Shown here: positions 2,782-32,869 of the stretch, piece after piece | Layout of the letters: every line of letters begins with the position of its first letter | Numbering within the stretch: the first letter of the stretch is position 1 | NCBI GenBank assembly: GCA_044868105.1 | Contig: JBIOWC010000196.1 | Location: 198 to 64,197 of the forward strand | Direction of reading: 5' to 3' | Source of the DNA: Blastocatellia bacterium | GTDB taxonomy: Bacteria; Acidobacteriota; Blastocatellia; UBA7656 | DNA length: 64,000 nt | The notes under the pieces: generated by a model | What the model saw: the letters and a program-made list of their open reading frames with translations, nothing else | The model's database searches: none | Told to the model about the DNA's origin: nothing | Translations under genes and position numbers: made by a program

Positions 2782-4791
2782 TTGAGCGTGGGTGACGTAT
2801 TGACTATGCTAGCTGCGCGATTTATGGCAAAGATTTCCTCGCGACTACGATTCTTGACTGAGATAAGCGAATGGTTATCCCGTAGCATCGCCAAACCATC
2901 AGCAGCAAAACCACGTCGTAAACAATGGCTCATCATCTGTGTCAGTATTTTTCTCATCGGGGTCGGTGTGCGCTTGTTGCACTGGCAAGACCTCACGGTT
3001 GAGCTTCAGCAGCAAGAAGAGATGATGCCCGGTCTGGCAAAACATTACAAACAAGAAGCCAAACAGATGCTCGACGAGGGCTACCTCCTTTATCCGGCAA
3101 GCCCGGTTGACCCGGGCGATGCGCGACTCATCTTGCATCCGCCGGGATATGCGTTTTTGATGGCCATCATTTTTCGGCTTTCCGGCGCAATTGATTCGCC
3201 GATCAGGCTGGCGCAAATCATCGGTGACTCACTTGCAGCGGTGTTGATTTTTTTCATTGCTGCAGAATTGTTTCGCCAAGCGATTGCCGTGCTTGCCGGA
3301 TTTCTGGTCGCCTTGTCGCCGCATTTTGCTCACTACTCGCTCTGGCTTTCACCCGATACCTTGCCGGTCTTACCGATATTGATTGCCGCATGGCTTATCA
3401 TTAAAGCGAGCCAGCGACCACGCCTCCCGACGGTCATTCTTGCCGGGGCTATGCTCGGATTATCCTGCTGGCTGCGCGCCAATGCCCTGTTGATTGCCCC
3501 GTTTTTTGCGGTCGCCGTTTTTTTTACCATTGAGCGCAGTAAACGCCTGCTCTATCCTGTCGCGCTGGTTGGCGCGATGGTCGTGGTGATTTCGCCAATC
3601 ACCATTCGCAATTGGATTCTCTATCATCACTTCATTCCAGTTTCGATAGCCGGAGGTGAAAACCTGGTGGTCGGTATTGCCGATGTTGATAAAGAAAAGC
3701 GTTTCGGGATGCCGGCATCGGATGATGAAGCTTCTGACAAAGATGCCGAGTGGCACAACCGCCCGGATTATGCGGTGAGCCTCTGGTCGCCCGATGGCAT
3801 TGAACGCGACCAGTATCGTTACCGGCGCGGGCTTGAAGTCATTCGCGCCAACCCCCGCTGGTTTTTAGGCGCGATGGCTAAACGCGCTATCTTTATGTTG
3901 CGCTATAACGATGCAATTCCTTCGACCTGGCCCTTCAATACGGCTAACGTGCCGTTGGTTGCTGCTGAACCCTCGGTCGGGCAAGCCCCCCTAAGCTTTG
4001 CGGACCAACAACCCACCTGGTCAGCCGATGCCAATCAATTACTGGCTGAAGGAGAACAACTGGCGAAAGCGGCTGAACTAGCCAGCGACGCAAGTGGGCT
4101 CGCGCTACGCGGTGACGGCTCGGCATTTGGAGATCAGTTTCAATCCACAAAGCTTGCGGTTGAACGGCACACCGATTACGCCATCACCTTTTCGGGAAAA
4201 GTCGTGCAGGGTGAAATGGGCATCAAAGTAACCGACGTGAACCGACGCATCACTCTCGATTCGATAATTTTTGCGCAAGACGAAAAAGTAAAGCAGAACG
4301 CTACAAATGGAGAGAGCGAGCCAGCCAAGCAAACGCGCACCCTGTTGTTTACCAGTGGCAACCGTTCGGAAGTGCGTCTGGTGATAAGCAACGATAGAGC
4401 CGATGCCAGGCATCCCGAAATTCGCATCGCAGAGGTTAAATTGTTCAATCTCGGGCCAACTCCCTATCGCTGGACGCGCTATCCGCGTTTGCTGGTTCGC
4501 GCCATTCAGAAAAATATTTTTCAGACGAAATTTTTATTGCCGTTGGTGATTGTCGGTGTGGCGTTGTTGATTTGGGCGCGGGCGCGAAAGTCATTGATTT
4601 TTTTACTCACCGTGCCAACTTACTATATGCTCATCCATTCAGCGTTAAGCACAGAGTATCGTTACATTCTCGCCATTCATTATTTCTTCTTTATCATCGC
4701 CAGCGTGACGCTGTGTTGCTTAAGCCTCGCCGTCAAACAAAGCGCAACCTATTCGCTGAACAAATTCAAAGCTGTCAAAAGCTCGTCCTGA
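2782..4791 (+). CDS. Polytopic membrane glycosyltransferase, family 39 (ArnT/PMT-like) architecture, with a long C-terminal soluble region and a terminal TM segment
   Basis: The 669-aa ORF has more than 10 predicted hydrophobic helices in its first ~300 aa. GT39-like N-terminal loop motifs are present (DEGYLLYPASP..., HPPGYAFLMAIIFRLSG). A hydrophilic ~250-aa domain follows, then a final hydrophobic stretch. Confidence 0.5.
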   Translation: MSVGDVLTMLAARFMAKISSRLRFLTEISEWLSRSIAKPSAAKPRRKQWLIICVSIFLIGVGVRLLHWQDLTVELQQQEEMMPGLAKHYKQEAKQMLDEGYLLYPASPVDPGDARLILHPPGYAFLMAIIFRLSGAIDSPIRLAQIIGDSLAAVLIFFIAAELFRQAIAVLAGFLVALSPHFAHYSLWLSPDTLPVLPILIAAWLIIKASQRPRLPTVILAGAMLGLSCWLRANALLIAPFFAVAVFFTIERSKRLLYPVALVGAMVVVISPITIRNWILYHHFIPVSIAGGENLVVGIADVDKEKRFGMPASDDEASDKDAEWHNRPDYAVSLWSPDGIERDQYRYRRGLEVIRANPRWFLGAMAKRAIFMLRYNDAIPSTWPFNTANVPLVAAEPSVGQAPLSFADQQPTWSADANQLLAEGEQLAKAAELASDASGLALRGDGSAFGDQFQSTKLAVERHTDYAITFSGKVVQGEMGIKVTDVNRRITLDSIIFAQDEKVKQNATNGESEPAKQTRTLLFTSGNRSEVRLVISNDRADARHPEIRIAEVKLFNLGPTPYRWTRYPRLLVRAIQKNIFQTKFLLPLVIVGVALLIWARARKSLIFLLTVPTYYMLIHSALSTEYRYILAIHYFFFIIASVTLCCLSLAVKQSATYSLNKFKAVKSSS

Positions 4792-4794
4792 AAC

Positions 4795-5733
4795 TTACCC
4801 CGTGGCGCTTGCGCACTGTAACGGCGTAAAGGGAACGAAGGCCTTTTCGCGTTCCAGTTTTTCTAAAATCACCTCGGCATGGGCGGCCTCGCGAATTAAA
4901 GATTTGAGCGTTGCAATTTGCCTGGCGGTTTCCAATTCGCATTGTAATTCGGCAAAAATTTGTGTCCGCTGCGCTCTTGAGAGGTGACCTTTGACGCGCT
5001 CGATTTGGGTGACCACCCCTTGCTGACCAACTTGCACCAGGCGGAAAAAGCTCATGAGGATTTCGAGAAGGCGTTCCAACTGAGGGTTCAACAACCTCTT
5101 TTCACTAAAGAGTAGCAATCCGCTGCCGTGATGGCGCGCTTCGTCTTTCAGGATATTTTCAAATACTTGTTTGAGCGCTGCGCTGTGGCACCCCTTCATC
5201 AGGGCGTTGTAATGCTTGATTCCCCAACCTTCGAGGATGACCTGGACGACATAAGTCAAGGTGGTTTTATCTTCGTGTTGCAAAATTTCACTGAGCAGTT
5301 GAATGAACGGCTGGTGCAGGCAATCGGCAATCGCGTCTTGCGCGGTGAATTTTGCAAGCCAACTGAAATGCGTCGCTTCGTCTGCAGCAAACAAACTATA
5401 GAGCATCTTCTCTTGAGTGGTTTCGGCAAGCAGACACATCTTCGGCGCGAAATACATTCCGCATTTTTCAATGTAATAAGATTCAGCCAACAGGCTGGCG
5501 CTGCACGCTCGCAATATTTTTTCTCGCTCTTCATCGCTTGATTGTTGGAATATCGCAACCCTGTTCAAACGGAACTGCTCGGCCGGCCAAAAGGCCTGAG
5601 AGGTCAGGTCGCCAGGCGTTTGAAAAGCCGTTTTACTTTTCAACGCGGATGCGAGAATGGGGTTGAGAAGATGCGCTGCGCCGGAGTCGGGTGAATCAAG
5701 ACGGGGTTCAATTTGAATGGTTGCTTCGGTCAT
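4795..5733 (-). CDS. Ferritin-like di-iron carboxylate protein (AurF/desaturase-like oxygenase fold), last gene of the oxygenase operon
   Basis: 312 aa with two E...EXXH half-sites (LLAESYYIEKCG / ADEATHFSW and VILEGWGIKHY / KDEARHHGSG). The 36-bp gap to the upstream SDR gene suggests co-transcription. Confidence 0.55.
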   Translation of the reverse strand: MTEATIQIEPRLDSPDSGAAHLLNPILASALKSKTAFQTPGDLTSQAFWPAEQFRLNRVAIFQQSSDEEREKILRACSASLLAESYYIEKCGMYFAPKMCLLAETTQEKMLYSLFAADEATHFSWLAKFTAQDAIADCLHQPFIQLLSEILQHEDKTTLTYVVQVILEGWGIKHYNALMKGCHSAALKQVFENILKDEARHHGSGLLLFSEKRLLNPQLERLLEILMSFFRLVQVGQQGVVTQIERVKGHLSRAQRTQIFAELQCELETARQIATLKSLIREAAHAEVILEKLEREKAFVPFTPLQCASATG

Positions 5734-5769
5734 TGGGTCAGCTATTTCTGTTAGGGCAGAGTCAAACTC

Positions 5770-6630
5770 TTATGTCTCACCCGAAAAAATCTTTTTGTAC
5801 ACCGAAGAAAAAACTACGGTTTGCAAAGCTTCGGGCAAAGCGCGTTTTGCTGCGTAAACACTTTTTGCATCCTTGCCGCACCGCACCCGCAAGGGCATCC
5901 GTTTCATAGAAGCGAGTCGCATCACGGCACGAATAACCGGCGCCGGTGAGTTGCCTGTTCCCATCGCGCGCTGCTCACGGTAACGCCGGTAAGCTTCACT
6001 TTGCTTTCGATAAACCGAATGTTCATCAAAGCAGTGCGCGCCCCAGACCAGTTTTTCGGCAAAGCCGGTGCGAAAAGCGCCCGGTTCAACCAGGGCAACT
6101 TGTACGCCGTGCGGGCGAAGTTCGTGATATAACCCTTCGGAAAAACCTTCGACGGCAAATTTGCTGGCACAGTACAGCGTTGACATCGGCATCGCCGTAT
6201 AGCCCAGCACAGACGAAAGGTTGATAATGCGCCCGCGCGCTTTTCTAATTTGCGGCAACAGGCTGCGGGTCACGGCAACCAGGCCGAAAAAATTGACTTC
6301 CATCTGCGCGCGAATCTGTTCGTCGGATAAATCTTCGACAGCGCCAAACAAACCATAACCGGCGTTGTTGACCAGACAATCTAATTTGCCATCGAAATGT
6401 TTTTCAATAAACTCGAAGGCGGTTTGGCGTTCCGCTTCGCTTGTCACATCCAGGGAAAGCAAAAATAACCGTTCGGCATGCGCAACCATCTCCTCTTTGA
6501 AAATCTCGCGACGCGCTGGCGCCTTGCGCATCGTCGCAATAACCGTCCAGCCATCGCGTAGAAATTCCGGCACTAACAAACGACCAAATCCCGATGAGCA
6601 GCCGGTTATCAAAACGGTTTTGTTATTCAT
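5770..6630 (-). CDS. Short-chain dehydrogenase/reductase (SDR) family oxidoreductase
   Basis: N-terminal TGCSSGFG Rossmann motif, NNAG, catalytic S...YCASK tetrad context, 286 aa. Confidence 0.85.
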   Translation of the reverse strand: MNNKTVLITGCSSGFGRLLVPEFLRDGWTVIATMRKAPARREIFKEEMVAHAERLFLLSLDVTSEAERQTAFEFIEKHFDGKLDCLVNNAGYGLFGAVEDLSDEQIRAQMEVNFFGLVAVTRSLLPQIRKARGRIINLSSVLGYTAMPMSTLYCASKFAVEGFSEGLYHELRPHGVQVALVEPGAFRTGFAEKLVWGAHCFDEHSVYRKQSEAYRRYREQRAMGTGNSPAPVIRAVMRLASMKRMPLRVRCGKDAKSVYAAKRALPEALQTVVFSSVYKKIFSGET

Positions 6631-6646
6631 GCCTTTCCTCTAAAGC

Positions 6647-7486
6647 TTAACGCAGACGTTTGCCAACGGCGCCTTGCTTGACCGCCGGACTGCCGATTTT
6701 TTGTCCCCACCGGGCTAGGGGTTTTATCAAGCGGTCAACGATGAAACCCTTTATTGCGTATTGAAATGGCATCCGCAGCGTCATGCGGGCAAGGCACGCG
6801 AGTTCCAACCCTTGTTGCCAACCGGGATTCGCGCTTTGAAAAAAAGCGATTTTCGGATTCGTCTCAACCAGCGATGCTGAAATATTCGCCACCCCGGTTT
6901 TCAAATGACACGCCGCTTCCTGCGGATGAATCAACCCGCTGGCCGCGTCATATTCACCTGGATAAAGCAGCGAATAAAATCTATTCATCAGTGTTTTTTT
7001 ATCTTCAGGCGTTGGCTTATTAAAACGCGGGTAATAGTCAGTGAAATTATTCGCCATCATCAGGTAGGTTTTGTAACCCTTGCTGATTAATAACCAGTAG
7101 AGCGGTGAAGCAGGTCGCCGCAATTTTTCTTTAAAGAGATACCCAAGAAACGCTTTGCCGAGCGTGCGCTGTCCCCAGAACGATTTTTCCAGCACCGTGT
7201 CGCCGCTGAAGATGGCGCGATATTCTTTGCCGCCCAGCTCGACGCTGAGTTTCATTATTGTAGAAAAGCCTTGAACCTGTTGGTTGCGCTCGTCGAGTAA
7301 AAGAATTACGTCATGCTTTTTCGCGAGGTCTTTTAAGAATTGTTCGCGGGTCACCGGCTCATAATAGTTCTGCATCAATTCAAACATGCGCATTTTGTGA
7401 GCCAGTGTGAGCTTTGTAGCAGGCACCACCTGAGCTTTCAATTTGCCATTCGCACGACGAGTTGAATCACTATTTTGCTTATTCAT
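6647..7486 (-). CDS. Hypothetical protein, possibly a GNAT-fold acyltransferase; function uncertain
   Basis: 279-aa soluble ORF, translationally coupled to its neighbours (16-bp gap to the SDR, 4-bp overlap with the Rieske gene). I recognise no catalytic motif with confidence. The size and context resemble N-acyltransferases found in lipid-tailoring clusters. Confidence 0.3.
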   Translation of the reverse strand: MNKQNSDSTRRANGKLKAQVVPATKLTLAHKMRMFELMQNYYEPVTREQFLKDLAKKHDVILLLDERNQQVQGFSTIMKLSVELGGKEYRAIFSGDTVLEKSFWGQRTLGKAFLGYLFKEKLRRPASPLYWLLISKGYKTYLMMANNFTDYYPRFNKPTPEDKKTLMNRFYSLLYPGEYDAASGLIHPQEAACHLKTGVANISASLVETNPKIAFFQSANPGWQQGLELACLARMTLRMPFQYAIKGFIVDRLIKPLARWGQKIGSPAVKQGAVGKRLR

Positions 7487-8565
7487 TTTGCTTCTCGCTC
7501 AAGATAATTTTGTGCCCGGACGCTGGGAATAACTTTCAGACGCGGCGGCTCGCTCTTGGGTTCGCTGTCCAACGGCAAGCCCCAATCCAGGGTTGTTTGC
7601 CCTTCTGCGTGTTGAATGAATTGAATGATGGCGGCATCGGCTTTAATCGGTGTACGCAGATTAAATTTAATGGTTTTGAAAATCAGCGTGTCGCCTTTTG
7701 CAAAATAGGCGCCGACAATGCGGGTCAGGACGAGCAACACCAAGCTGAACAATTTGCCGAATAAACCTTGCCGTTTTTTGGTCAGCAAGATGGTTTGTCC
7801 CTCACTCTGCCCGTCTTTTGTTGGTCGCAGAGCAAACATAATATGAAAGTGTAAGAAATCAGGTCCCACGGTCACCGTACCGGTGCTGGCAAAAAAATAG
7901 CAGAGGTCATAGGTCAAACGCTGGCGATAAAAATGCCCGAGAAAGCGCGTCCACCAGCGCGACTGGGGAATCGCTGTGGTATTGGTAAATTTGATGCAGC
8001 TCTGGCTGATGATAGTCGGCTCAAGATTTAAATCAACTGGAAGATGATGAACCGAATTGAAATGCTGTGCGTCAATGGCGTTAATCATCATGACATTCGG
8101 ATGACAGGCTTTGACGAAGCGGTTAGCAAGCCGGTAATCACAGGCGGGAGTTTCAAGTTCGGGCACGAACGGCAACGGGTGCGCCGGCCCCTGCCCGGCC
8201 CAAATCCAAATCAAGCCATACGCTTCTTCAACGCGCCAGGTTTGCAGTTGCGGAACGAACGAACAATTGTCCTGGCAGGGAATCTCCAGGCAACGACCAT
8301 CGCTATTGTATTTCCAGTAATGAAACAGGCAACGAATCGCTTCACCTTCGATTTTGCCTTCGGCAAGATGTGCGCCCATATGCGGACAAAAAGCATCCAT
8401 TGCGTAAACGCGCCCGCTTTCTCCGCGATACAAAACCAGCTCGCGCCCGAAAAAATTGCAGGCTCGCGGGCGCGGGTGTTTAAGCTGGCGTGAAGGCATA
8501 ACCCAATACCAACCTTCAATAATTTTTTCAGCGTTGTTGAAGGTTCGCGTGTTTGTCCGTGTCAT
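7483..8565 (-). CDS. Rieske [2Fe-2S] non-heme iron oxygenase (PAO/KshA-like single-component alpha subunit)
   Basis: Rieske ligands CPHMGAHL ... CLFHYWKY (CXH-X(15-17)-CXXH). The mononuclear-iron motif DAQHFNSVHH follows. The C-terminus is hydrophobic, suggesting a membrane-associated tail. 360 aa. Confidence 0.8.
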   Translation of the reverse strand: MTRTNTRTFNNAEKIIEGWYWVMPSRQLKHPRPRACNFFGRELVLYRGESGRVYAMDAFCPHMGAHLAEGKIEGEAIRCLFHYWKYNSDGRCLEIPCQDNCSFVPQLQTWRVEEAYGLIWIWAGQGPAHPLPFVPELETPACDYRLANRFVKACHPNVMMINAIDAQHFNSVHHLPVDLNLEPTIISQSCIKFTNTTAIPQSRWWTRFLGHFYRQRLTYDLCYFFASTGTVTVGPDFLHFHIMFALRPTKDGQSEGQTILLTKKRQGLFGKLFSLVLLVLTRIVGAYFAKGDTLIFKTIKFNLRTPIKADAAIIQFIQHAEGQTTLDWGLPLDSEPKSEPPRLKVIPSVRAQNYLEREAK

Positions 8566-8622
8566 GATGCGCTCGCTTGCCTGATTGATAACACGCCCGG
8601 AAGTGTTTGTAGCGTTAGTCTC

Positions 8623-9066
8623 TCACAGTTCATCTATTGTGACAACGTCGAATTGTTGTTTGACTATGGCGACAAAAATCTCCGGCAAGTTAGCCGCATC
8701 GCCAGATAAGTTATCGCAGAAATACAGGCGGTCTTCTTCGATTGCCCGGTAGACATCAGGTTTTTTGCCATCTCGTTGATTTGCCAAATGCAGATTGTAT
8801 AGGTTGCAGGCTGAATTGTAAGCAACCTGAAAGGGCAATTTCTTGACCCGCACCTCGGCCACTTTTAAATCCATCGCCGGGATGCGGATTTTGAATTCAA
8901 GGCCTATTTCACCTTTAAGAAAAACTGCATCTTGTGGAAAAGACCGAGAAAATTCTTCGCCAGAAAAGCCAATCACTAAACCATACCGTGTATTTTTAAC
9001 ATACGAGGTATGCCATTTCGTACAGCCTTTACAATGTTTTTGGCTTGTAATGAATGGGTACAGCAC
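8623..9066 (-). CDS. Hypothetical protein (first ORF of the oxygenase operon; start uncertain)
   Basis: 147-aa ORF, 57 bp upstream of the Rieske gene on the same strand. Only a CxxC pair is seen near the N-terminus (HCKGCTKWH); no other recognisable motif. Confidence 0.3.
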   Translation of the reverse strand: MLYPFITSQKHCKGCTKWHTSYVKNTRYGLVIGFSGEEFSRSFPQDAVFLKGEIGLEFKIRIPAMDLKVAEVRVKKLPFQVAYNSACNLYNLHLANQRDGKKPDVYRAIEEDRLYFCDNLSGDAANLPEIFVAIVKQQFDVVTIDEL

Positions 9067-9184
9067 AGCTATTTTTTGAAATATCGTGAATTATCCGATT
9101 CAGAGTGATATGCGTTTTGAGGCATCTGAATTGCTCATGCCATTTATCATTCGAATAAACCAGATTGAGGTGGAGGAAAAAATA

Positions 9185-9823
9185 ATGACCAGAGCAAATC
9201 GCATCATCGCTTTTTCTTTAGTTGCTGCCATTTTATTAACTGGCTTTGCAATCGGACGTTTCACGCAATCGGCCAGCACCAGCGCGGCCGATGAAACAAC
9301 CCCGGTCACGAGTACCGTACAACCCACGAATGAAACGACAACCTCTGAGGCGTCAACCCCTGCGGCGACAACCAAGGAACGCGATTTTTATTTAAGCGAT
9401 TTCAAGGTCGGATACACGGATGGCTATAACGCGGGCGTGTCAGGTCAAAACGCGGCGGTGCCGGAAACCTCGCGTCCGGGTTACAACGACGGCTACAAAG
9501 AAGGCTACACCGATTCCCTACAAGCGCAGGCTAAAACCGAAACGCCAGGGGTTACGGTTGCGTCGCAAGCCGGCACCCGAGAACGAGTGGTCTATCGCAC
9601 GGTTGACCGCCCGGTCTATCGCACCGTGTCGCGTCCGGTCTATGTCACGCCGCGTAAGCGAGGTTCCAAATTAAAAACCGCGCTGACGATTGCGGCGCCA
9701 GCGGCAATTGGCGCAGGTATCGGGGCTATATTTGGTGGTAAAAAAGGCGCCGGTATTGGGGCGCTGCTCGGCGGCGGCGGCGGCGCGATTTACCATTTAA
9801 GGAAGAATCGTTATCGCGATTAA
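9185..9823 (+). CDS. Secreted or membrane-anchored repetitive protein (Thr-rich linker, triple R-x-VYRTV-x-RPVY repeat, Gly-rich C-terminus)
   Basis: The ATG at 9185 is preceded by GGAGG. A signal/anchor helix follows (IIAFSLVAAILLTGFAIG). The linker is T/S-rich. The repeats are RVVYRTVDRPVYRTVSRPVYV. The tail is GAGIGAIFGGKKGAGIGALLGGGGG. An intrinsic terminator follows at 9857-9882. Confidence 0.55.
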   Translation: MTRANRIIAFSLVAAILLTGFAIGRFTQSASTSAADETTPVTSTVQPTNETTTSEASTPAATTKERDFYLSDFKVGYTDGYNAGVSGQNAAVPETSRPGYNDGYKEGYTDSLQAQAKTETPGVTVASQAGTRERVVYRTVDRPVYRTVSRPVYVTPRKRGSKLKTALTIAAPAAIGAGIGAIFGGKKGAGIGALLGGGGGAIYHLRKNRYRD

Positions 9824-9856
9824 TCGCTTGTGTGAATAAGTTCGGTTGAGATGAAA

Positions 9857-9882
9857 AGCTCGGGTGCATCCGAGCTTTTTTT
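9857..9882 (+). terminator. Rho-independent terminator
   Basis: AGCTCGG-GTGCAT-CCGAGCT hairpin followed by TTTTTTT, 34 bp after the stop of the 9185-9823 gene. Confidence 0.7.
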
Positions 9883-10007
9883 ATCTCCGCACCTCACTTA
9901 CAAAGAATAATTGCTCATCAGCTTTTAATCTTTTGCCTTACCCTCAAGCTTGTGTGTTATGATGCAAACAAACAAAGTTAAAGCTGCCAGTAGAGGTGGG
10001 GAAGCTT

Positions 10008-11294
10008 ATGTCACACGGCAGAAAGTTCAGACAGAGTAGGCGGATTCCTGAAACCGAGCGTTTCTTGTTCGAGCAAAAGTTGACCGGTCGTTATTCACGC
10101 ACTCTTGACCGCACGGATGTCATCAACTTGATCAGAGGCGGTGAAGACACGCATCTGGAATTTAAGATTCGCCTGGTCAATACCGAAAAAATTACTGCTG
10201 AGATTGTCGCCATGGCAAATTCCGGCGGCGGCGCCATGATGTTCGGCGTCAACGACCAGCGCCGCATCGAAGGCCTGGACGACCCCGAATACGTCGAAGA
10301 CCAACTCATCGAAATATGCCGCAATCAAATTAAACCCGCGCTTTTGCCGCGCATTGATAAAGTCTTTTTCGATAACGGCGACCGCATTGTTGTCTTGCAG
10401 GTTGATGACCGTCGCGCTCCGCACGCAACCCCCGACAATCGCTATTTTGTTCGGGTTGGCTCCACCAAACGCGAAGCCGCTGCCGATGAAATCGCTGCCC
10501 TGTTTGCCAAATCGCGTATCCTTGGATACGAAGATTCGCCGCAGGTTCAAGTTGCGGTTGAAGAGATTGATGAAGCATTGGTGTGGAGTTACTTGCGCGA
10601 CCTGGAGGGTGAACTGTTCCGCGAACCTGCGGGTTTTCCGACCGCCCAAGCCCTGCATGATTTATATCTGGCAAAAGAGTACGCTGGCGGCATTAGACCA
10701 ACCCTGGCGGGCGTGTTGCTCTTTGGTCGCAGTGCCGCTGTACAAAAGGCGGCTCCGCAAAGCGCCATCTATTTAACGCGCTATTCGGGTACCACGCTCG
10801 ATTCGCCGGTGGTTGAAAAGAGTGAAGCCTCGGGCAATTTGAGCGTCATGTTTGACCGCGCCCTGGCCTTCATCAAGCGCTATATTGATGTTTGGGATGC
10901 AAAACCACCGAAGTCCCAGAACGGGCAACCAGAGCCGATTTCAGCCCGCGCTAACTATTCGCGCGAAGTAATCATTGAAGCATTGACCAATCTTTTGGTG
11001 CATCGGGATTATTCGATGATGAATTCGCCTTCGCGTATTCTGGTATTCGATGACCGCATCGAACTCATCAATGCCCGGCGAACCAATGGACTGACCCGTA
11101 AATCCGTCGAATATGGTGTGACGGCGCAACCTAATCCGCGCCTTCATCATATCTTCACAGAAGCTGAATACGGGTGCGTATCCTCGCTTCGCGGGATTCC
11201 GGCTTTACGCCGCGCACACTTCGCATTTGCCAAACGCGAGCCGCGCATTTCGCTTCTCAATGACGAATTTCGTTTGGAACTCAACGGAGTTTGA
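10008..11294 (+). CDS. Putative ATP-dependent DNA-binding regulator with AlbA_2 (Schlafen-like 'divergent AAA') and HATPase_c_4 domains (RecG-like C-terminal family)
   Basis: EDTHLEFK motif and the AEIVAMANSGGG hallmark of AlbA_2. The C-terminal IIEALTNLLVHRDYS motif is typical of HATPase_c_4. A SD (GAGGTGGGG) precedes the ATG at 10008. Confidence 0.7.
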   Translation: MSHGRKFRQSRRIPETERFLFEQKLTGRYSRTLDRTDVINLIRGGEDTHLEFKIRLVNTEKITAEIVAMANSGGGAMMFGVNDQRRIEGLDDPEYVEDQLIEICRNQIKPALLPRIDKVFFDNGDRIVVLQVDDRRAPHATPDNRYFVRVGSTKREAAADEIAALFAKSRILGYEDSPQVQVAVEEIDEALVWSYLRDLEGELFREPAGFPTAQALHDLYLAKEYAGGIRPTLAGVLLFGRSAAVQKAAPQSAIYLTRYSGTTLDSPVVEKSEASGNLSVMFDRALAFIKRYIDVWDAKPPKSQNGQPEPISARANYSREVIIEALTNLLVHRDYSMMNSPSRILVFDDRIELINARRTNGLTRKSVEYGVTAQPNPRLHHIFTEAEYGCVSSLRGIPALRRAHFAFAKREPRISLLNDEFRLELNGV

Positions 11295-11297
11295 ACC

Positions 11298-11603
11298 ATG
11301 CGATGGCGAGGTTTTATATGCCTGGCATTTTTATTTGTCGCTTGCCATCAACCGGCGCAAATGCAATCTGTACACCAACCACCGACAACGAATCGAGAAG
11401 CCGCGCAACCCTGTGTGAATTTGAATGTGGCAAGTCTTGAAGAATTAAAAGCGTTGCCGGAAATTGGTGACGCGCTCGCCGCCCGCATCATTGATTACCG
11501 CGAACGTCACGGCAATTTTCGCCGCCCGCAAGAGGTCATCATTATCGAAGGCTTTACTGAAAAGAAATACCGTACGATTGCTGACCGCCTTTGCGTTGAA
11601 TGA
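11298..11603 (+). CDS. comEA: ComEA-family helix-hairpin-helix DNA-binding (competence) protein
   Basis: Signal peptide, then NLNVASLEELKALPEIGDALAARIIDYRERHGNFRRPQEV, the canonical ComEA HhH module. 101 aa. Confidence 0.8.
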   Translation: MRWRGFICLAFLFVACHQPAQMQSVHQPPTTNREAAQPCVNLNVASLEELKALPEIGDALAARIIDYRERHGNFRRPQEVIIIEGFTEKKYRTIADRLCVE

Positions 11604-11619
11604 ATAACCGGTTCAATCC

Positions 11620-11850
11620 TTAATTCATCGAACAGGAGCCGGCGCCACGCGGATCGCCGCAACTGCCGCAAGGCGCCACTGACATTTCGCGTTGAACGGA
11701 ACCCGCGCCTTTACTGACCGCAGCAAAAACCGAGAGTTGTTTTTCAAGTTTTGCGCTCTTGCATTGCGGGCATTCAACCTTTGTTGACTCGCGAACCAGG
11801 AGTTCAAAATGATTTTTACAGCTTTGACAAACGTACTCGAAAATCGGCAT
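11620..11850 (-). CDS. FmdB-family zinc-ribbon regulatory protein
   Basis: MPIFEYVCQSCKNHFE...CPQCKS at the N-terminus (CxxC-X-CxxC) and a C-terminal Cys cluster (CGSCGDP..GSCS). 76 aa. Confidence 0.75.
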   Translation of the reverse strand: MPIFEYVCQSCKNHFELLVRESTKVECPQCKSAKLEKQLSVFAAVSKGAGSVQREMSVAPCGSCGDPRGAGSCSMN

Positions 11851-12191
11851 TCGATTTCACTCCTAAAAAGATTTTGTTGAGGGGAAACATAATCTACGCC
11901 GAGTGCACCAGGCAAGGTATTTCGCTACTCCATCGGTAAGCCCATTCTTCAATCAGCGTCGCACAGGTTTCGGTAAGCAGAGGAAACCCTGTATCAAAGA
12001 AAAAGTTTAACTTCCGAGTCGGCGGAAAGAGCAGATAGGGCAGCAAAAAAATCCGGTTAATTCATCTTCTCCGCCTCATTCGAGGTTAATTCCTTTGTTG
12101 GCAGCTTGCTTTCTTGACGAGACTGTAAAGACCGCCATCCCAATCACTGCTCACTCGCAATTCATTAATCGGTGCGCTAAAGTAACTGCAC

Positions 12192-13307
12192 GTGATGAGC
12201 AACACCAACCCACCCAATCCGATCTTAGTTGAAATCCGGCGCGGGGCAATTGTTGAAGCCGTGCATCGCGGCGCCATTGTCGCGCTTGAACCTGACGGCA
12301 ACCTCATTGCGGCGCTTGGCAACATTGATTTAATGACTTCAACGCGCTCGGCAATTAAACCGATTCAGGCAATCCCTTTTATCACCAGCGGCGCGGCTGA
12401 CCGCTTCAACGTCACCGGACGTGAACTCGCTGTGGTTTGCGCTTCGCATGACGGCGAACCTTTTCACACCGAAACCGTCGCGTCCTTACTTGATAAAATC
12501 GGGCTGAATGAAAGCGATTTGCGATGTGGCGCGCATCCGCCCTATCACGAAGCAACCGCCAGGCAACTTGAGCGCGACGGCATAAAGTTCACCCAGCTTC
12601 ACAACAACTGTTCAGGCAAACACGCGGGAATGCTGGCAACCTGCGTACATCGCGGGTTATCTACGGATGATTACACGGCAAAAGAGCATTCCGTTCAGCA
12701 GGAAATCATTGCTATCTTCAAGCGCCTTGCGGGGCTGGATGAACCTATCGCCATCGCAGTTGACGGTTGCAGTGCGCCGACCTTCGGGGTGCCGCTTCGT
12801 TCACTCGCGCTCGCATTTGCGCGGCTCGTTGAAGCTTCGGCCAACCACAACCGCGTAGATGAAAGCGGCTCCGGTAGCCAGTTTCAAGTTGAGCACCTAT
12901 CGCCACAACTCGCCGAAACGGCGCGCCGTGTGATGTACGCCATTGCCGCCAGACGAATTGTGGCAGCGATAACCGCGCATCCTGAAATGGTCGCTGGCAG
13001 CACCCGGCTCGACACCGATTTAATGCGTGTGGCGCGCGGTTCATTGATTTGCAAAGTCGGCGCCGAGGCGGTCTATTGCCTAGGCGTTTTGCCCTGCGCA
13101 ACCTATCCGCGCGGCCTGGGCATTGCCATCAAGATGGATGACGGCGCCTATAGAGGGATGAATCCCACGATTATCGAAACCCTTGCGCAACTCGAGGTTT
13201 TCGACAAAGCGCAGCAAGCGGAATTAACTGGCTATCATCAACCAACGGTGACGAATCACCGCGGCTTGAGAGTCGGCGAGATTCGCGCGGTATTTGAATT
13301 GAGATAG
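12192..13307 (+). CDS. L-asparaginase II family protein (Asparaginase_II, PF06089-type)
   Basis: The NNCSGKHAGML motif and overall similarity to the Rhizobium-type asparaginase II fold. 371 aa. Confidence 0.7.
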   Translation: MMSNTNPPNPILVEIRRGAIVEAVHRGAIVALEPDGNLIAALGNIDLMTSTRSAIKPIQAIPFITSGAADRFNVTGRELAVVCASHDGEPFHTETVASLLDKIGLNESDLRCGAHPPYHEATARQLERDGIKFTQLHNNCSGKHAGMLATCVHRGLSTDDYTAKEHSVQQEIIAIFKRLAGLDEPIAIAVDGCSAPTFGVPLRSLALAFARLVEASANHNRVDESGSGSQFQVEHLSPQLAETARRVMYAIAARRIVAAITAHPEMVAGSTRLDTDLMRVARGSLICKVGAEAVYCLGVLPCATYPRGLGIAIKMDDGAYRGMNPTIIETLAQLEVFDKAQQAELTGYHQPTVTNHRGLRVGEIRAVFELR

Positions 13308-13447
13308 GGGATAGGATTTAGGACGTAGGGTTTGGAGTTAGGCATTGTATGTTGCCTTGCAACAGGCTCCAGAAGCCAATTACAAGGTAATAGTTTCGCA
13401 CTCTACATCCGGAATCCTACCTCCTAAATCCTAAATCCTAATTTCTG
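13308..13447. repeat. Palindromic intergenic element, copy A: inverted heptamer-repeat arms flanking a conserved core
   Basis: Left arm GATAGGA-TTTAGGA-CGTAGGG-TTTGGAG-TTAGG. Right arm CCTACCT-CCTAAAT-CCTAAAT-CCTAAT (reverse-complementary heptads). The core contains AACAGGCTCCAGAAGCCAATTAC...TAG...CTCTACATCC, which is shared with copy B. Confidence 0.7.
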
Positions 13448-15537: not shown

Positions 15538-15644
15538 AGGCTCAGGTTCATCAGGTGAGCTGATTATTTGAAATTTAATAGTATTCTAATTTTGTGTTGC
15601 CGAATCGATTTGCTGTTCTATAAAGTTTTAGGACAAATCAAGGT

Positions 15645-15989
15645 ATGGGAGAAAATTCGACAAATCTTGCTGCCGAGCTTACCGTCTTCCACCAAGACGA
15701 AGGCGACTACACGAGCCGCACCATATACATCTCCGTCGATGGCAAGAAAATCGCCAGCGTAAAATCGGGAGCTTCCGTCACCGTGGAGATCACGCCGGGT
15801 AAGCACATTCTTCAAGCGGACAATACTTTCACGAAGAAGCGAGAACCCTTTGAAGCGCATCCCGGTGAAAAACTGCGTTATGTGACCCGCAATCGTATCG
15901 GCTTCGGCTCATCGCTAATCAGCATTCTCGGCGCGGGACCGGTCTACCTCATTTTGCAGAGAGAAGCCGAAGCGGCAAGCTCAAATTAG
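15645..15989 (+). CDS. Hypothetical protein
   Basis: 114-aa ORF in an AT-rich patch. It has a C-terminal hydrophobic segment (GFGSSLISILGAGPVYLIL) and no recognisable motif. Confidence 0.3.
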   Translation: MGENSTNLAAELTVFHQDEGDYTSRTIYISVDGKKIASVKSGASVTVEITPGKHILQADNTFTKKREPFEAHPGEKLRYVTRNRIGFGSSLISILGAGPVYLILQREAEAASSN

Positions 15990-16043
15990 CACCACACAGG
16001 ATTAGGACACTAACCTAATGCTACTTGCCCGGCTCAAGGCACT

Positions 16044-16874
16044 TTGATAGAACAGGATTATTTTGAGCTTATTTTTATTATGTTTGTTTTAGGTAAGGGA
16101 AAATCCACAGGTAAAATCGTCAATAGTCTGAGTGATGATGGAGTCATCATAAGCACGACACATTATTCGGTTGAAGAGTGTAACCAGGGACTGCATTACC
16201 ATGAAAATCCGCACCTCTGTTTCCTATTTCAAGGCGAAGATATAGAGAGCCGCAATAATCTTTCCTATCGGCGAAAAACCGGAGACATTTACTTTTATTA
16301 TGCCGGAGAGACGCACGCTTCGATTTCCCGTACAGGTATTTCAAAAAATACCAATATTGAATTTGGAGAAACTTTTCTAAAGAAATATGAGGTTTCAGAA
16401 TCCCAGATTGCCAGGGCGATAAAAGACAATTTAGATGCCAGGTTCCTCATCTTAAAAATGCAGCAGGAAATGTTAATTGGCGACCGTTGCAGCCGCCTCA
16501 CGATTCAGATGCTTTTACTCAATTTAATTCACGATGCAAATCCCACCTCTAACCAATCGCCTCCGAAATGGGTACAACGATTAGCTGAGTTGCTCGATGA
16601 GAAATGGAACCAACAAGTCACCTTACATGAACTTTCAATGGCGACCGAAGTGCACCCGGTAACCATTTCAAAATACTTCAGAAAGTACTTTTCCTGTACC
16701 TTAGGAGAATACCTGCGAAAACTAAAGATTGATAAAAGTATTTCATTAATTAAAAACACACGTATGTCACTTACCGAAATTGCTCTTTATTGCGGCTTTG
16801 CCGACCAAAGCCATTTCACCAGAAATTTCAAGCACCTGACCGGCTTTTCGCCCAAAGAATTCCGCAATATCTAA
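16044..16874 (+). CDS. AraC/XylS-family transcriptional regulator
   Basis: C-terminal double HTH (LTEIALYCGFADQSHFTRNFKHLTGFSPKEFR) and an N-terminal cupin-like sensing domain. The gene is conspicuously AT-rich (about 40% GC) against a roughly 58% background. Confidence 0.85.
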   Translation: MIEQDYFELIFIMFVLGKGKSTGKIVNSLSDDGVIISTTHYSVEECNQGLHYHENPHLCFLFQGEDIESRNNLSYRRKTGDIYFYYAGETHASISRTGISKNTNIEFGETFLKKYEVSESQIARAIKDNLDARFLILKMQQEMLIGDRCSRLTIQMLLLNLIHDANPTSNQSPPKWVQRLAELLDEKWNQQVTLHELSMATEVHPVTISKYFRKYFSCTLGEYLRKLKIDKSISLIKNTRMSLTEIALYCGFADQSHFTRNFKHLTGFSPKEFRNI

Positions 16875-17025
16875 ATTCCGCAGCTCGCTAATCTCATTCT
16901 ATTTTTTCCCAGTTCCTGCCCTATACTTGCTCTCAAAGCCTGGCCTGATAATGGGCTGCTGCCGTTCTGCAGCGCAGGTTACCATTGCAGAACTGGCTCA
17001 TAAAATATTTTGGGAAGCAAGTTGT

Positions 17026-18489
17026 ATGCATATCAATCTTATTCGGTCATATCGTTTTTTCACGCTAATGGCGTTGTGCTTGCTCAGCGTGCAGGGTAGC
17101 GCGGCACAGGCTCCAACCGCCAAACAAGTTGCCGCAAAAGTTGACGAGTATATGAATGCCGCCGTCAAATTCGACCAGTTCAGTGGTGCGGTTCTCATCG
17201 CAAGGGACGGCGCGCCCATCGTAAGCCGTAGCTATGGGATGGCAAACTACGAATTGAAGGTGCCGAACACGCCGAAGACGGTTTTCGAAACCGGTTCGGT
17301 TACCAAGCAATTTACCGCGATGGCGATTATGCAATTGCAGGAACGCGGGAAATTGAATGTCAATGATTCGATTTGCAAATATCTGGAAGACTGTCCGGCG
17401 GCGTGGCAATCCGTGACGATTCGTCATCTTTTGACGCACACTTCCGGCATTATGAACTATTCAAGTCTTCCCGATTGGGACGATAAAATTTCCCTGCTGC
17501 CTTACACTCGTGCAGGATTCGTGAAAGTGTTCCGCGATATACCGCTCGAATTTGTGCCGGGCGAGAAATTCAAATACAGCAATTCCGGATATTATCTGCT
17601 CGGCTTGATTATTGAACGCGCATCGGGCAAGTCATATCGGGAATTTTTGAGCGAGAACATTTTCGTGCCCTTAGGGATGAAAAGCTCGAGCTACAACGAC
17701 CCGCCTGCGCTCATCCCGAATCGCGCCACTGGTTACTATTGGGAATTAAATTCATTTATCAGCGCACCAAATGAAAATTTGGCGCTTGGCTTTGCAGCAA
17801 GTGGCATCTATACGACGATTGAAGATCTACTGCTATGGGACAAGGCGCTTTATACCGAAAAACTCGTCTCTCGTAAATCGCTGGATGAAATCTTTACCCC
17901 ATTCCTTGAGGAATACGGTTATGGCTGGCTAATCGGCAAAAAGTTTGACCGGCAGATGATAAGTCATAGCGGCAGACACAATGGTTTTAAAGCCTACATC
18001 GCCCGCTTTCCCGCCGCGCGGGTGACGGTCATCGTTTTGAGCAATAGCGACAGAACGTCTGCGACCAAGGCGGCAACTAATCTCGCCGCAATTGCCTTCG
18101 GCGCGCCCTACAAGCTGCCCATACTGCAGGGTTCGGATATGCTATCAGCAGCCATCGCGGAAAAAGGTATCGAGGCTGCTATGCGGCAATACCGTGAATT
18201 AAAACGCTCCCAACCAGAAAAGTATAATTTTAATGAACCGGAGCGGGCACTAAATGATTTAGGCTATGCTTTGCTCGGACGCCGAAAGGTGAAAGAGGCA
18301 ATCGAAGTTTTCAAATTGAATGTCGAGATGTTTCGGCAATCGGCCAACGCCTATGACAGTTTAGGCGAAGCTTATATGTTGAGTGGGAACAAAGAGCTGG
18401 CCATCGAGAATTATAAAAAATCGCTGGAACTTGACCCGCAAAATATCAATGCCGGCGATATGCTAAAGAAGTTACGAGAAAGCAAATAA
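17026..18489 (+). CDS. Secreted beta-lactamase-family serine hydrolase with C-terminal TPR repeats
   Basis: Signal peptide (MHINLIRSYRFFTLMALCLLSVQGSAAQA). The S-x-x-K active site is GSVTKQF, with a YSN-like motif (KYSNSGYYLL). The C-terminus has TPR-like repeats (ALNDLGYALLGRRKVKEAIEVFKLNVEMFRQSANAYDSLGEAYM...). Confidence 0.8.
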   Translation: MHINLIRSYRFFTLMALCLLSVQGSAAQAPTAKQVAAKVDEYMNAAVKFDQFSGAVLIARDGAPIVSRSYGMANYELKVPNTPKTVFETGSVTKQFTAMAIMQLQERGKLNVNDSICKYLEDCPAAWQSVTIRHLLTHTSGIMNYSSLPDWDDKISLLPYTRAGFVKVFRDIPLEFVPGEKFKYSNSGYYLLGLIIERASGKSYREFLSENIFVPLGMKSSSYNDPPALIPNRATGYYWELNSFISAPNENLALGFAASGIYTTIEDLLLWDKALYTEKLVSRKSLDEIFTPFLEEYGYGWLIGKKFDRQMISHSGRHNGFKAYIARFPAARVTVIVLSNSDRTSATKAATNLAAIAFGAPYKLPILQGSDMLSAAIAEKGIEAAMRQYRELKRSQPEKYNFNEPERALNDLGYALLGRRKVKEAIEVFKLNVEMFRQSANAYDSLGEAYMLSGNKELAIENYKKSLELDPQNINAGDMLKKLRESK

Positions 18490-18512
18490 CCTCAGCTCAA
18501 CATAAGAAAAGA

Positions 18513-18741
18513 TGATCGGTAGTCTACGAAAGTCGCATCGCTAGTGAGAACATAGCGCTTGCCGGGGTCGCAGACTTGGCGTTCTTGGCGAAAGCTTGGC
18601 GTCTTGGCGTGAAACCACCCCCGCGACCATCCCCTTTCTCGCCAAGACGCTATGCTCCGCAAAGCTCGCCAAGGAGGATAGCGCTTACCAACACGCATCG
18701 ACAGGAACTTGAGCAACACAACTTTAAGAGACTACCGAAAT
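18513..18741. repeat. About 230-bp imperfect long palindrome / structured element downstream of the beta-lactamase-family gene
   Basis: Outer inverted pair CGGTAGTCTACGAAA ... AGAGACTACCGAAAT. ATAGCGCTT(G/A)CC direct repeats. Triple CTTGGCG (18575-18611) opposed to CGCCAAG x2 (18641-18675), centred on GAAACCACCCCCGCGACCATCCCC. Confidence 0.55.
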
Positions 18742-18780
18742 TTCCTTGACCGGAAATCGCGCCAGCCTCTATGCTAACCG

Positions 18781-18885
18781 TGTATAGTGGTCGTGGTGAT
18801 TTAAAGCAAATTGCTCCACGTTAAAGATGTGCTAAATCGCAAGGAAAATTTTCAGGCCTTGTGCAAATTTAGCACAAGGCTTTTT
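18781..18885 (+). ncRNA. Candidate small RNA or leader/attenuator transcript upstream of the peroxiredoxin gene
   Basis: Putative promoter TTGACC (18746-18751) with a 17-18 nt spacer and CTATGCT. About 100 nt downstream is a strong intrinsic terminator, GCCTTGTGC-AAATTTA-GCACAAGGC + TTTTT (18856-18885). It is nested in a larger GTGCTAAAT/ATTTAGCAC inverted repeat and lies about 115 bp upstream of the prx start. Confidence 0.3.
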
Positions 18886-19000
18886 CGTTGGATGGCAGCG
18901 AAAATAAAAGCTGTTATGATTAATAGCCCATTCTTTCAAGGGTAGCCCCCTGAAAGTAGAGCTTAAAGTTCAAAATTTAATGAGAAAGGACGCAAACAAC

Positions 19001-29728: not shown

Positions 29729-29918
29729 CAGGAATTAGGAGTTAGGATGTAGGAATTAGGATATAGGAGTTGGGGAGGTAGAGGATTTAATGTTTCACCC
29801 GCCTGTTGACTTGAAACAGGCTCCAGTAGCCAGTTACGAGACCGTAGCAGTTCTACTTCATCCCTTCCGTATGCTGTATCCTAATTCCCATTTCCTAATT
29901 CCTATATCCTACATCCTA
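29729..29918. repeat. Palindromic intergenic element, copy B (same family as 13308-13447)
   Basis: Left arm AATTAGG-AGTTAGG-ATGTAGG-AATTAGG-ATATAGG-AGTTGGG... Right arm CCTAATT-CCCATTT-CCTAATT-CCTATAT-CCTACAT-CCTAG. The core AACAGGCTCCAGTAGCCAGTTAC...TAG...TTCTACTTCATCC is about 75% identical to copy A. Confidence 0.7.
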
Positions 29919-32561: not shown

Positions 32562-32597
32562 GGATGATCTTTAAAAATCAAAAAATATTTTCTAAAA

Positions 32598-32782: not shown

Positions 32783-32869
32783 TTCGCTCAACTTTATAAA
32801 ACCGAACAAGGCTACTTACTTTCGGTGATTGAACATTCGCAATGCAGCGACCGGATTCATCATATGCGA

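Follow-up and report, generated by a model that had tools for sequence, protein, structure and literature searches.

The subject of this report is a 64,000-nucleotide stretch of DNA from contig JBIOWC010000196.1 of a Blastocatellia bacterium (hereafter, the window), in which a gene for an AraC/XylS-family regulator of 264 amino acids (aa) lies directly upstream of a gene for a secreted serine hydrolase of 487 aa. We consider it reasonably probable that these genes, together with a 22-nucleotide (nt) box and a promoter between them, form a two-gene module, one of a conserved set of regulator–hydrolase modules, in which the regulator switches on a D-peptidase- or amidase-like enzyme of family S12 that carries a C-terminal tetratricopeptide repeat (TPR) tail. 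The regulator gene occupies 16080–16874 and the hydrolase gene 17026–18489, both on the forward strand, and a spacer of 151 nt separates the regulator stop codon from the hydrolase start. An initial annotation, made from the sequence of 15540–18741, had described an AraC regulator directly upstream of a secreted S-x-x-K hydrolase, and this description holds: the regulator matches HTH_18 (3.6e-19), and the hydrolase matches PF00144 (9.5e-71), contains the motif S91-V-T-K94 and, judged by its sequence, begins with a signal peptide. In the mechanism that we propose, the cupin domain of the regulator would sense a small ligand, and the regulator would bind the box, which would stand in for the −35 element in the class II geometry of an activator-dependent promoter, so that the hydrolase is switched on. 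The hydrolase would then be exported and act as a D-stereospecific peptidase or amidase on D-amino-acid or peptidoglycan-derived peptides, not as a beta-lactamase, with the TPR tail serving as a peptide- or protein-binding module.

When the spacers of the different modules were aligned, one common sequence was apparent, with the family consensus GGCTAATCTCATTCTATTTTTT. The box of the window (CGCTAATCTCATTCTATTTTTT, 16886–16907, forward strand) has one mismatch to this consensus, begins 11 nt past the AraC stop codon and is the sole match in the window, compared with 0 matches in 100 shuffles. The box was found 3' of the AraC stop in 13 of 14 modules (11 loci), and in 11 of the 14 its core lies 15–22 nt past that stop. 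Scoring was performed on a leave-locus-out basis, with the box matrix built without the locus under test, and the box was the top match in all 11 loci, for example at 33.1 bits versus 8.7 bits for the next site in the window, and 39.0 versus 7.5 bits in L002, an NCBI contig from a metagenome-assembled genome (MAG). No further site of ≥18 bits was present in the 1.5 Mb scanned, which included ~75 hydrolase loci without an AraC gene, and no second box, such as might indicate autoregulation, was found upstream of the AraC gene in the window. The most conserved blocks of the box, GCTAA and TTCTA, are 10 bp, or one helical turn, apart. Such a spacing suits the two helix-turn-helix (HTH) motifs of an AraC monomer, going by the binding mode of MarA, SoxS and Rob. 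From these features of the sequence we infer that the box is the operator of the adjacent AraC regulator, at an activator-dependent promoter. As in class II activation by MarA, SoxS and Rob, the predicted site is asymmetric, ~20 bp long, placed over the −35 region and just upstream of its target, whereas a difference from known AraC/XylS systems is that the regulator gene itself is upstream of, and co-stranded with, its target, with the box at a fixed distance from the regulator's own stop codon.

The position of the box relative to the predicted promoter is likewise fixed. The sequence TAnnTTTG (allowing ≤1 mismatch) lies 14–15 nt past the box at 12 of the 14 sites, with 0–1 sites at any other offset, and it is the sigma-A −7 consensus of Flavobacterium (PMC9723704). 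In both the window and L002 this predicted −10/−7 element reads TATACTTG (16922–16929 on the forward strand of the window, 14 nt past the box), which has one mismatch to TAnnTTTG and whose first six bases, TATACT, fit TATAAT at 5 of 6 positions. Since the upstream DNA of the window (4.7 kb) is enriched over coding sequence in TATAAT (0.64 versus 0.04 per kb) but not in TAnnTTTG (0.21 versus 0.16 per kb), we read TATACTTG mainly as a sigma-70-like −10 element, and on the same figures a Bacteroidota-type promoter was rejected as the normal type of this host. The box overlaps the −35 region of the predicted hydrolase promoter, the −35 hexamer CTATTT is a poor fit to the consensus, and transcription is predicted to start at ~16935–16940. 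Sequences upstream of the regulator genes were also shared between some loci. In L007, L006, L092 and L094, a motif of approximately TTGTCAyAAAT, a gap of 10–13 nt and GTGTTTTC lies 40–80 nt upstream of the AraC starts, and the window and L002 have another sequence, CTCAAGGCACTTTG, in common upstream of AraC. The motif upstream of the AraC starts may be the regulator's own promoter.

The C-terminal half of the regulator is a standard AraC double HTH (HTH_18, 69.5 bits versus a cut-off of 33.6; HTH_AraC, 53.1 versus 26.6), and the length of 264 aa is kept across ~120 homologs. In the AlphaFold model of the protein (predicted local distance difference test (pLDDT) score, 91) a beta-barrel at residues 2–95 is followed by a helical linker and then by the HTH region, and the top Foldseek matches for the model were full-length ToxT, Rns and CsvR, the sensor domains of RhaR and BgaR, and free-standing cupins. 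On the basis of the model, the N-terminus is assigned as a cupin sensor domain; Pfam gave a trace match alone to Cupin_2 (E 0.093). Among 31 family members, H39, H41, E77 and H79 are invariant, E42 and N43 nearly invariant, and H45 is present in at least 90%, a His/Glu set that suggests a site resembling those of metal-type cupins. The regulator therefore appears, from its model, to have the same fold and domain order (cupin, helical linker, two HTH motifs) as ToxT, Rns, CsvR, RhaR, RhaS and BgaR, but it is only 11–16% identical to the solved AraC/XylS regulators and differs from them in the invariant H39, H41, E77 and H79 set of its sensor. The subfamily is small and sharply bounded, with 166 cluster representatives (E ≤ 1e-30) among 1.84 billion proteins, nearly all of them 260–275 aa long. 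The DNA-binding domain hardly varies among family members, in keeping with a box that is itself invariant.

The match of the hydrolase to PF00144 (239.1 bits versus a cut-off of 27) extends over profile positions 16–326 of 329, and the profile search that had been suggested for assigning its subfamily placed it in MEROPS S12/PF00144. In an alignment of 24 homologs, S91-V-T-K94, Y184-S-N186 and H314-S-G316 (487-aa numbering) are invariant, and they align with the same motifs of Pab87; SxxK, YxN and HxG are the motifs of S12 peptidases (PMC2651629). The N-terminus, MHINLIRSYRFFTLMALCLLSVQGSAAQA (17026–17112) with P following the predicted cleavage site, reads as a Sec signal peptide, with the A-x-A rule obeyed at A27-Q-A29. 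In the AlphaFold model of the hydrolase (pLDDT 89), a low-confidence helix at residues 4–23 was read as this signal peptide, the catalytic domain reaches to approximately residue 357, and seven helices at residues 369–485 (18130–18480) probably represent about three TPRs and a cap. Consistent with this assignment, three TPR profiles matched above their cut-offs (TPR_2, 38.1 bits versus 27, 1.1e-09; TPR_1, 36.1 versus 27.8; TPR_8, 32.2 versus 25.7), and designed consensus TPR proteins were also matched in the PDB sequence search. The initial annotation had called a TPR module on a beta-lactamase fold unusual, but 98 of the 120 best homologs of the hydrolase bear TPR Pfam matches, and in 49 of 80 metagenome loci the alignment runs through the TPR tail, down to 41% identity.

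Among natural proteins of solved structure, the sequence search ranked Pab87 highest (2qmi, 1e-37), followed by a penicillin-binding protein (PBP) of Bacillus halodurans (3tg9), Flp, alkaline D-peptidase, the D-stereospecific hydrolase 9s7k, ClbP and LACTB, with the AmpC enzymes lower, near 1e-20. The Foldseek search ranked structures as the sequence search does, with a probability of 1.00 to 2qmi, 3tg9, 4gdn, 4y7p and 1ikg (root-mean-square deviation 2.5–3.7 Å over 330–365 columns); R61 DD-peptidase and FmtA/Flp were also among the structural neighbours. The match to solved structures involves the catalytic domain alone (query TM-score (TMq) ~0.6), and neither the PDB sequence search nor Foldseek found a natural solved structure that spans both the S12 and the TPR domains. 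Pab87, the best match (Foldseek 1.5e-23, 29–30% identity), cleaves D-amino-acid peptides and strips terminal D-Ala from muropeptides (PMC2651629). The window hydrolase has the same catalytic fold and the same SxxK, YxN and HxG motifs as Pab87, alkaline D-peptidase (ADP), R61 DD-peptidase and D-aminopeptidase (DAP) of MEROPS S12, and, like Pab87 and DAP, it has an extra C-terminal domain, which differs from that of Pab87 in being a three-TPR helical repeat; a further difference is its signal peptide. By sequence and modelled structure, the hydrolase is closest to the S12 D-stereospecific peptidases and PBP-like proteins, and an activity of that kind is predicted for it.

A more specific identity within the superfamily was rejected in two cases. 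The first was class C beta-lactamase: the hydrolase scored 106 bits versus a cut-off of 415 on the NCBIfam class C model (bla_class_C), and 64–81 bits on the models of named AmpC families, the cut-offs of which are 680–882. The third motif of class C beta-lactamases is KTG, and that of the hydrolase is HSG. The window pair resembles the AmpR–AmpC system in the adjacency of its regulator and enzyme genes and in an exported enzyme with the superfamily fold, SxxK and YxN. AmpR is LysR-type and divergently transcribed, whereas the window regulator is AraC-type and co-oriented with its hydrolase, which also differs from AmpC in having HSG rather than KTG and in its TPR tail. Of the inducible-resistance cassette that the initial annotation had likened to this locus, the regulator–hydrolase unit, with box and promoter between, was upheld, and the beta-lactamase was not. 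The second identity was CubicO: the hydrolase does have the S12 domain at its N-terminal side, as that family has, but it lacks both the family's own C-terminal domain and its motifs YAEAF/L, FFYLN and C-terminal ERY (as given in PMC2651629); at the position of the second CubicO motif the hydrolase reads KFKYSN, it ends in KKLRESK, and YAEAF occurs nowhere in it. The JGI label "CubicO group peptidase" on the hydrolase is a generic group name.

The AraC–hydrolase pair recurs in at least four genomic contexts at 78–86% identity, and in L002 and in a JGI contig the pair is kept while the flanking genes are entirely different. Homology between the DNA of the window and L002 covers 16021–16933 and 16992–18490 and nothing more, a second copy (L012, 86.5% identical) diverges from the window directly past the hydrolase stop, and homology with three other module copies stops at that codon. 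At least 18 further contigs seem to bear both homologs, judging by the same-sized contigs in both match lists. In a neighbour-joining tree, the AraC-linked hydrolases fall into at least three coherent clades, separated by clades with AraC-less members (P0021, L013, L016 and L019); the link to the regulator is stable within clades and is not a trait of the whole enzyme family. Because most S12-TPR homologs are without an AraC neighbour, the enzyme family does not need this regulator. When contigs were picked by the regulator alone, 10 of 10 AraC genes were followed by a co-stranded hydrolase, and the same order was observed in all 14 modules, the hydrolase having a signal-peptide-like N-terminus wherever this could be read (the hydrolase of the last module, the second copy in L092, runs off the end of the locus and its N-terminus is unreadable).

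The partners in these modules include S12-TPR, S12, CBM9-S12, S41, M13, aspartyl protease and amidohydrolase enzymes. An S41 peptidase is the partner in both L005 (Aquimarina) and L093 (Flavobacteriales ALC-1), an S12-TPR enzyme in L007, an aspartyl protease, followed by M1 and DLH hydrolase genes, in L094, and CBM9-S12 and S12 enzymes in L092 (the second of which is the one that runs off the locus end). Locus L006 has three tandem modules at 3130–12585, with S12-TPR, M13 and amidohydrolase partners, and the second AraC gene there starts 18 nt past the first hydrolase gene. The third L006 module has two boxes ~400 nt apart, the second of which is 430 nt away from the AraC stop and precedes the start of the amidohydrolase gene by 69 nt. 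Literature searches on S12 enzymes with TPRs or on the pairing of AraC regulators with peptidases found nothing relevant, and we found no published description of the box or of partner exchange within one regulator subfamily.

The base composition of the locus had been read as that of an AT-rich patch extending over 15540–18741, with a guanine plus cytosine (GC) content of about 40% in the AraC gene and about 50% in the hydrolase gene against a background of 58–60%. The values for the two genes were confirmed (0.406 and 0.484, respectively), but the background was not, as the mean GC of bases 1–34,000 is 0.505; the higher figure fits the far half of the window (0.563 for the remainder after base 34,000). 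Nor does the patch extend over the whole interval: in a fine profile the drop is confined to ~15,950–16,930, that is, the AraC gene and its 3' control region (GC 0.41). No 800-bp stretch of the window is lower in GC than one within the AraC gene (0.396, z = −3.3), and three other patches reach down to 0.41–0.43. Three unrelated items lie within 15540–18741: a small conserved gene of 114 aa outside the module (15645–15989, forward strand), the GC of which, 0.525, is normal; the AraC–hydrolase module; and a hairpin.

To evaluate these compositions, the GC expected for each gene was calculated from its own amino acids, with codon usage taken from 19 neighbouring genes. The hydrolase gene is compositionally native, since its observed and expected values agree for both GC (0.485 and 0.485) and GC at third codon positions (GC3; 0.554 and 0.554). 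For the AraC gene, the GC observed was 0.408 versus 0.445 expected, and the GC3 was 0.436 versus 0.533 expected; ~60% of its GC deficit comes from amino-acid content and the remainder from AT-rich synonymous codons. An island had been proposed for checking by codon usage, and by that check only the AraC gene of the interval departs from the host, the 114-aa gene being host-like as the hydrolase gene is, with the same AraC deficit in orthologs that are 75–83% identical and reside in mid-GC hosts, namely L002 (AraC GC 0.356 versus 0.48–0.57 in neighbours) and L007 (0.386 versus 0.44–0.55), where the GC3 of the partner hydrolase is again host-like. In low-GC hosts (0.30–0.43) the regulator has the GC of its host, with no deficit. 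Because the orthologs in L002 and L007 show the same deficit, the AT-richness of the regulator–box–promoter unit is, on these sequence comparisons, an old and stable property and not a mark of recent arrival.

Searches for signs of mobility found no tRNA in the 64-kb window, no integrase or transposase among the neighbours of the module, and no flanking direct repeats beyond short ones at chance level. The nearest homolog of the radical SAM gene was 72% identical (Blastocatellia MAG L009, in a scan of one genome per species) and that of the 114-aa gene 82% identical (L096), with no synteny on either side in either case; other homologs of the 114-aa gene likewise sit in unrelated surroundings, and the search turned up no close relative that has the flanks of the window module. 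The initial annotation had itself allowed for an ancestral low-GC regulator gene and a hydrolase of the D-Ala-D-Ala carboxypeptidase kind, and about half of that picture was found: the low-GC regulator is common to relatives and the hydrolase groups with DD-peptidase-like S12 enzymes, but the location of the module is not conserved.

The imperfect palindrome that had been noted at the end of the interval exists: it is 223 nt long (18516–18738, no strand assigned), sits in a 490-nt intergenic stretch 3' of the hydrolase gene, and folds better than shuffled sequences (z = −3.7 and −3.6 for RNA of the two strands and −4.2 for DNA). It is built of nested arms, with complementarity of 74% over 27 nt, 81% over 16 nt and 86% over 22 nt; the left arm bears four copies of CTTGGCG and the right arm CGCCAAG, and the palindrome has a 10-bp perfect terminal inverted repeat (TCGGTAGTCT / AGACTACCGA). 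There was no target-site duplication in its flanks, no second copy in the 64-kb window (word size 7) and no match in the plasmid collection. Within the window and the plasmid collection it thus has no support as a member of a repeat family; its heptamer pattern is not enriched (4 matches versus 1.2 expected, with 4 of 100 shuffles reaching 4), and a search of Rfam returned no family at threshold, only sub-threshold noise from microRNA models. It adjoins the module but was rejected as part of it, given that the homology with L002 and L012 ends at 18490, and it was rejected as an intrinsic terminator, given that a terminator scan found none at 18516–18738 and there is no T-run. The proposal that it is an integration or termination scar did not survive these results, nor the presence of five stronger hairpins elsewhere in the window. 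In our interpretation, the palindrome would be an unrelated intercistronic stem-loop, possibly acting on transcript 3' ends.

Several observations weigh against the reading of an activator-controlled D-peptidase module, and four alternatives to it were considered. That the regulator binds the box, where transcription begins and whether the control is activating or repressing are all predictions, the box is 56 nt (L014) and 33 nt (L050) from the AraC stop in two loci, and one module (the first copy in L092) has no clear box. In the window itself, 132 nt separate the box and the start codon, compared with 60–70 nt elsewhere, because of a leader insertion of ~60 nt (16934–16991) that is absent from the otherwise homologous L002 spacer; the leader of the hydrolase mRNA (16936–17040) has no notable structure (fold z = 0.1). 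It is unlikely that the box is something other than the AraC operator, such as an alternative-sigma promoter element, a binding site for some other regulator or, in the AraC transcript, a 3' element. Its fixed position relative to the AraC stop (15–22 nt) would also suit an element of a 3' untranslated region, it ends in a T-run, and its role as operator is deduced from sequence; but no hairpin precedes the T-run, hence there is no intrinsic terminator, the box keeps a fixed spacing of 14–15 nt to the −7/−10 element, and it occurs only where this AraC subfamily occurs. Moreover, GCTAA and TTCTA are spaced as an AraC monomer with its two HTH motifs would require, and the second box of the third L006 module, near the amidohydrolase start and far from the AraC stop, indicates that the box tracks the target promoter. 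That the regulator is beside the hydrolase in only 3 of ~80 metagenome loci, a sample chosen hydrolase first, is a further point against the module. A second alternative is that the enzyme is a housekeeping AmpH- or PBP4*-like DD-carboxypeptidase/endopeptidase that trims peptidoglycan and the AraC gene a mere neighbour. AmpH was the best NCBIfam match of the hydrolase (3.8e-33), R61 and FmtA/Flp are among its structural neighbours, and the protein is predicted to be exported, yet the AmpH score of 114.6 bits is far under the cut-off of 266, and the enzyme family is patchy with many paralogs, two to three PF00144 genes lying side by side in L007, L092 and L095. Given in addition the tight linkage in this clade to a ligand-sensing regulator and box, and the control by the same regulator family of peptidases that do not act on the cell wall (M13, S41, aspartyl protease), we regard a housekeeping role as improbable.

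The breadth of S12/PF00144, which spans esterases, beta-lactamases and amidases, also counts against a D-peptidase-like activity. A third alternative, an inducible enzyme for the breakdown of an ester or xenobiotic (a family VIII carboxylesterase or a different non-peptidase amidase), would fit with the inclusion of EstB-type enzymes in PF00144, with the presence of IS11 (7spn) and EstB (1ci8) among the structure matches and with the amidohydrolase that another member of the regulator family drives; it is quite improbable, however, as the esterase matches (1e-17 to 1e-25) are weaker than those to D-peptidase and PBP-like proteins (1e-30 to 1e-37), the partner enzymes of the regulator family are mostly peptidases, and HxG is what PMC2651629 gives as the third motif of S12 peptidases. 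The synonymous share of the AT bias of the AraC gene has no explanation in the module reading. The remaining alternative, which we judge to be very unlikely, is a recent AT-rich island whose cargo is an inducible resistance cassette (of a beta-lactamase or an esterase) and whose integration end is marked by the palindrome. In its favour, GC is at its lowest in the window over the AraC gene, the pair has differing flanks in different genomes, the named hosts of regulators ~50% identical to that of the window are Bacteroidota, which are low in GC, and S12 D-stereospecific peptidases figure in papers on resistance to non-ribosomal peptide antibiotics. On the other side, the hydrolase is native in composition, the AT bias of the regulator is common to the orthologs in mid-GC hosts and so long predates this genome, and neither tRNA, flanking direct repeats, integrase nor transposase was found where each was sought. 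The palindrome is unlinked to the module and is one of six hairpins, the class C score and the HSG motif do not fit a beta-lactamase, and the plasmid collection has no close match to the regulator family, its only match being 29.7% identical.

A broader form of the module reading can be put forward tentatively, as a possibility that we do not favour. In it, the 264-aa AraC regulator, its box and its promoter would be a portable unit that has been re-used across phyla to place various secreted hydrolases under one small-molecule signal, sensed by a His-rich cupin; the AT-richness would reflect a low-GC origin, and the −7 element would have drifted from TAnnTTTG to TATACT. The hosts of such a unit would be Bacteroidota (Aquimarina, Flavobacteriales ALC-1), other low-GC lineages and Acidobacteriota, and with this regulon the cell could defend itself against, or scavenge, D-amino-acid peptides, peptide antibiotics included. 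A low-GC origin of the regulator unit is possible. Several of the low-GC loci have Shine-Dalgarno sequences, and for this reason they are probably not Bacteroidota.

As the reading of a resistance island is unsupported, the locus is not to be counted as an environmental resistance gene, and it cautions against taking the low GC of a single gene as evidence of recent transfer, since such a composition can be a lasting trait of the gene. Both genes belong to known kinds (an AraC/XylS regulator and an S12-TPR hydrolase), and it is the box and the exchange of partners that give the module moderate interest. The predicted operator and the fixed promoter geometry make the regulon directly testable, and the regulator offers a route to the inducer of secreted S12-TPR hydrolases, which are abundant in soil Acidobacteriota.

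Other long imperfect intergenic hairpins emerged when the window was scanned in full, at 2449–2597, 13305–13440, 29730–29921, 32594–32784 and 45066–45172. Together with the palindrome beside the module, all six hairpins (119–231 nt) lie just past a stop codon, between co-directional genes, and look like a genome-wide class of intercistronic stem-loops. By mononucleotide shuffles the palindrome is the weakest of them (z = −4.0, versus −4.8 to −10.2 for the other five). Several have arms made of short tandem repeats (CTTGGCG, TAGGAnT or TTTGTG), and those at 13305–13440 and 29730–29921 form a small repeat family with common TAGGA-type arms, such as TAGGATTTAGGACGTAGG and TAGGAATTAGGATATAGGAG. 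The hairpin at 32594–32784 (z = −9.6), with an ABC-transporter ATPase gene on one side and a low-GC orphan gene on the other, consists of inverted copies of Acido-Lenti-1, of which that at 32739–32783 scored above threshold (41.5 bits) and three others were weaker (23.6, 18.8 and 17.8 bits), with copies on both strands. The Acido-Lenti-1 match, the organisms named as sources for homologs of the hydrolase, and L009 point to Acidobacteriota, and probably to Blastocatellia, as the origin of the DNA. The palindrome resembles REP/BIME elements of enterobacteria and Acido-Lenti-1 of Acidobacteria in being a long imperfect intercistronic hairpin, but in sequence it resembles none of the other five hairpins of the window, its arms being built from CTTGGCG heptamers.

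The only forward-strand intrinsic terminator of the region is at 18854–18890, where an 11-bp stem (6 G-C pairs; 18854–18882), 115 nt past the palindrome, is followed by a T-run, and the fold of 18778–18892 has a z of −2.7. Either the hydrolase transcript or a short RNA beginning past the palindrome likely has its 3' end here. A promoter-like site, TTGACC-18-TATGCT, is located at 18746–18775, and after it come a structured stretch and then the terminator stem; 18746–18890, which is upstream of the peroxiredoxin gene, could encode a small RNA of ~105 nt or a leader. Past the terminator, at 18892–18920, is another promoter-like site. A SAM-II/SAM_alpha riboswitch candidate at 18783–18855 scored 23 bits versus a gathering score of 36 and was treated as a chance match.

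The starts of the two module proteins (ATG 16080 for 264 aa and ATG 17026 for 487 aa) were set by homologs and database copies. Consequently, TTG 16044 was rejected in favour of ATG 16080 for the AraC gene, and TTG 16927 was rejected for the hydrolase gene, lying as it does inside the predicted promoter and upstream of the predicted transcription start; the longer open reading frames (ORFs) with TTG starts are probably artefacts. Neighbouring genes encode an asparaginase, an aminotransferase, a radical SAM protein, a peroxiredoxin and an M48 protease. The 114-aa protein upstream of the module has 11 homologs at 60–82% identity, and the homology of L096 with the window is restricted to its gene. 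In L095, a homolog of the 114-aa gene (8001–8357) ends a cluster of an AraC gene (272 aa, 30% identical to the window regulator), three S12 hydrolase genes and an alpha/beta hydrolase gene, and the repeated nearness of this small gene to AraC and S12 genes may exceed chance.

The composition of the window as a whole has a step near 34,000–35,000, from a GC of ~0.50 over 1–34,000 to ~0.56–0.59 over 35,000–64,000, and the high-GC half is occupied by nearly one long run of genes on the reverse strand. Close to this step, a 220-aa ORF without a Pfam match (32870–33532, reverse strand; GC 0.417) has a GC3 of 0.395 versus 0.549 expected, which is the same anomaly as that of the AraC gene.

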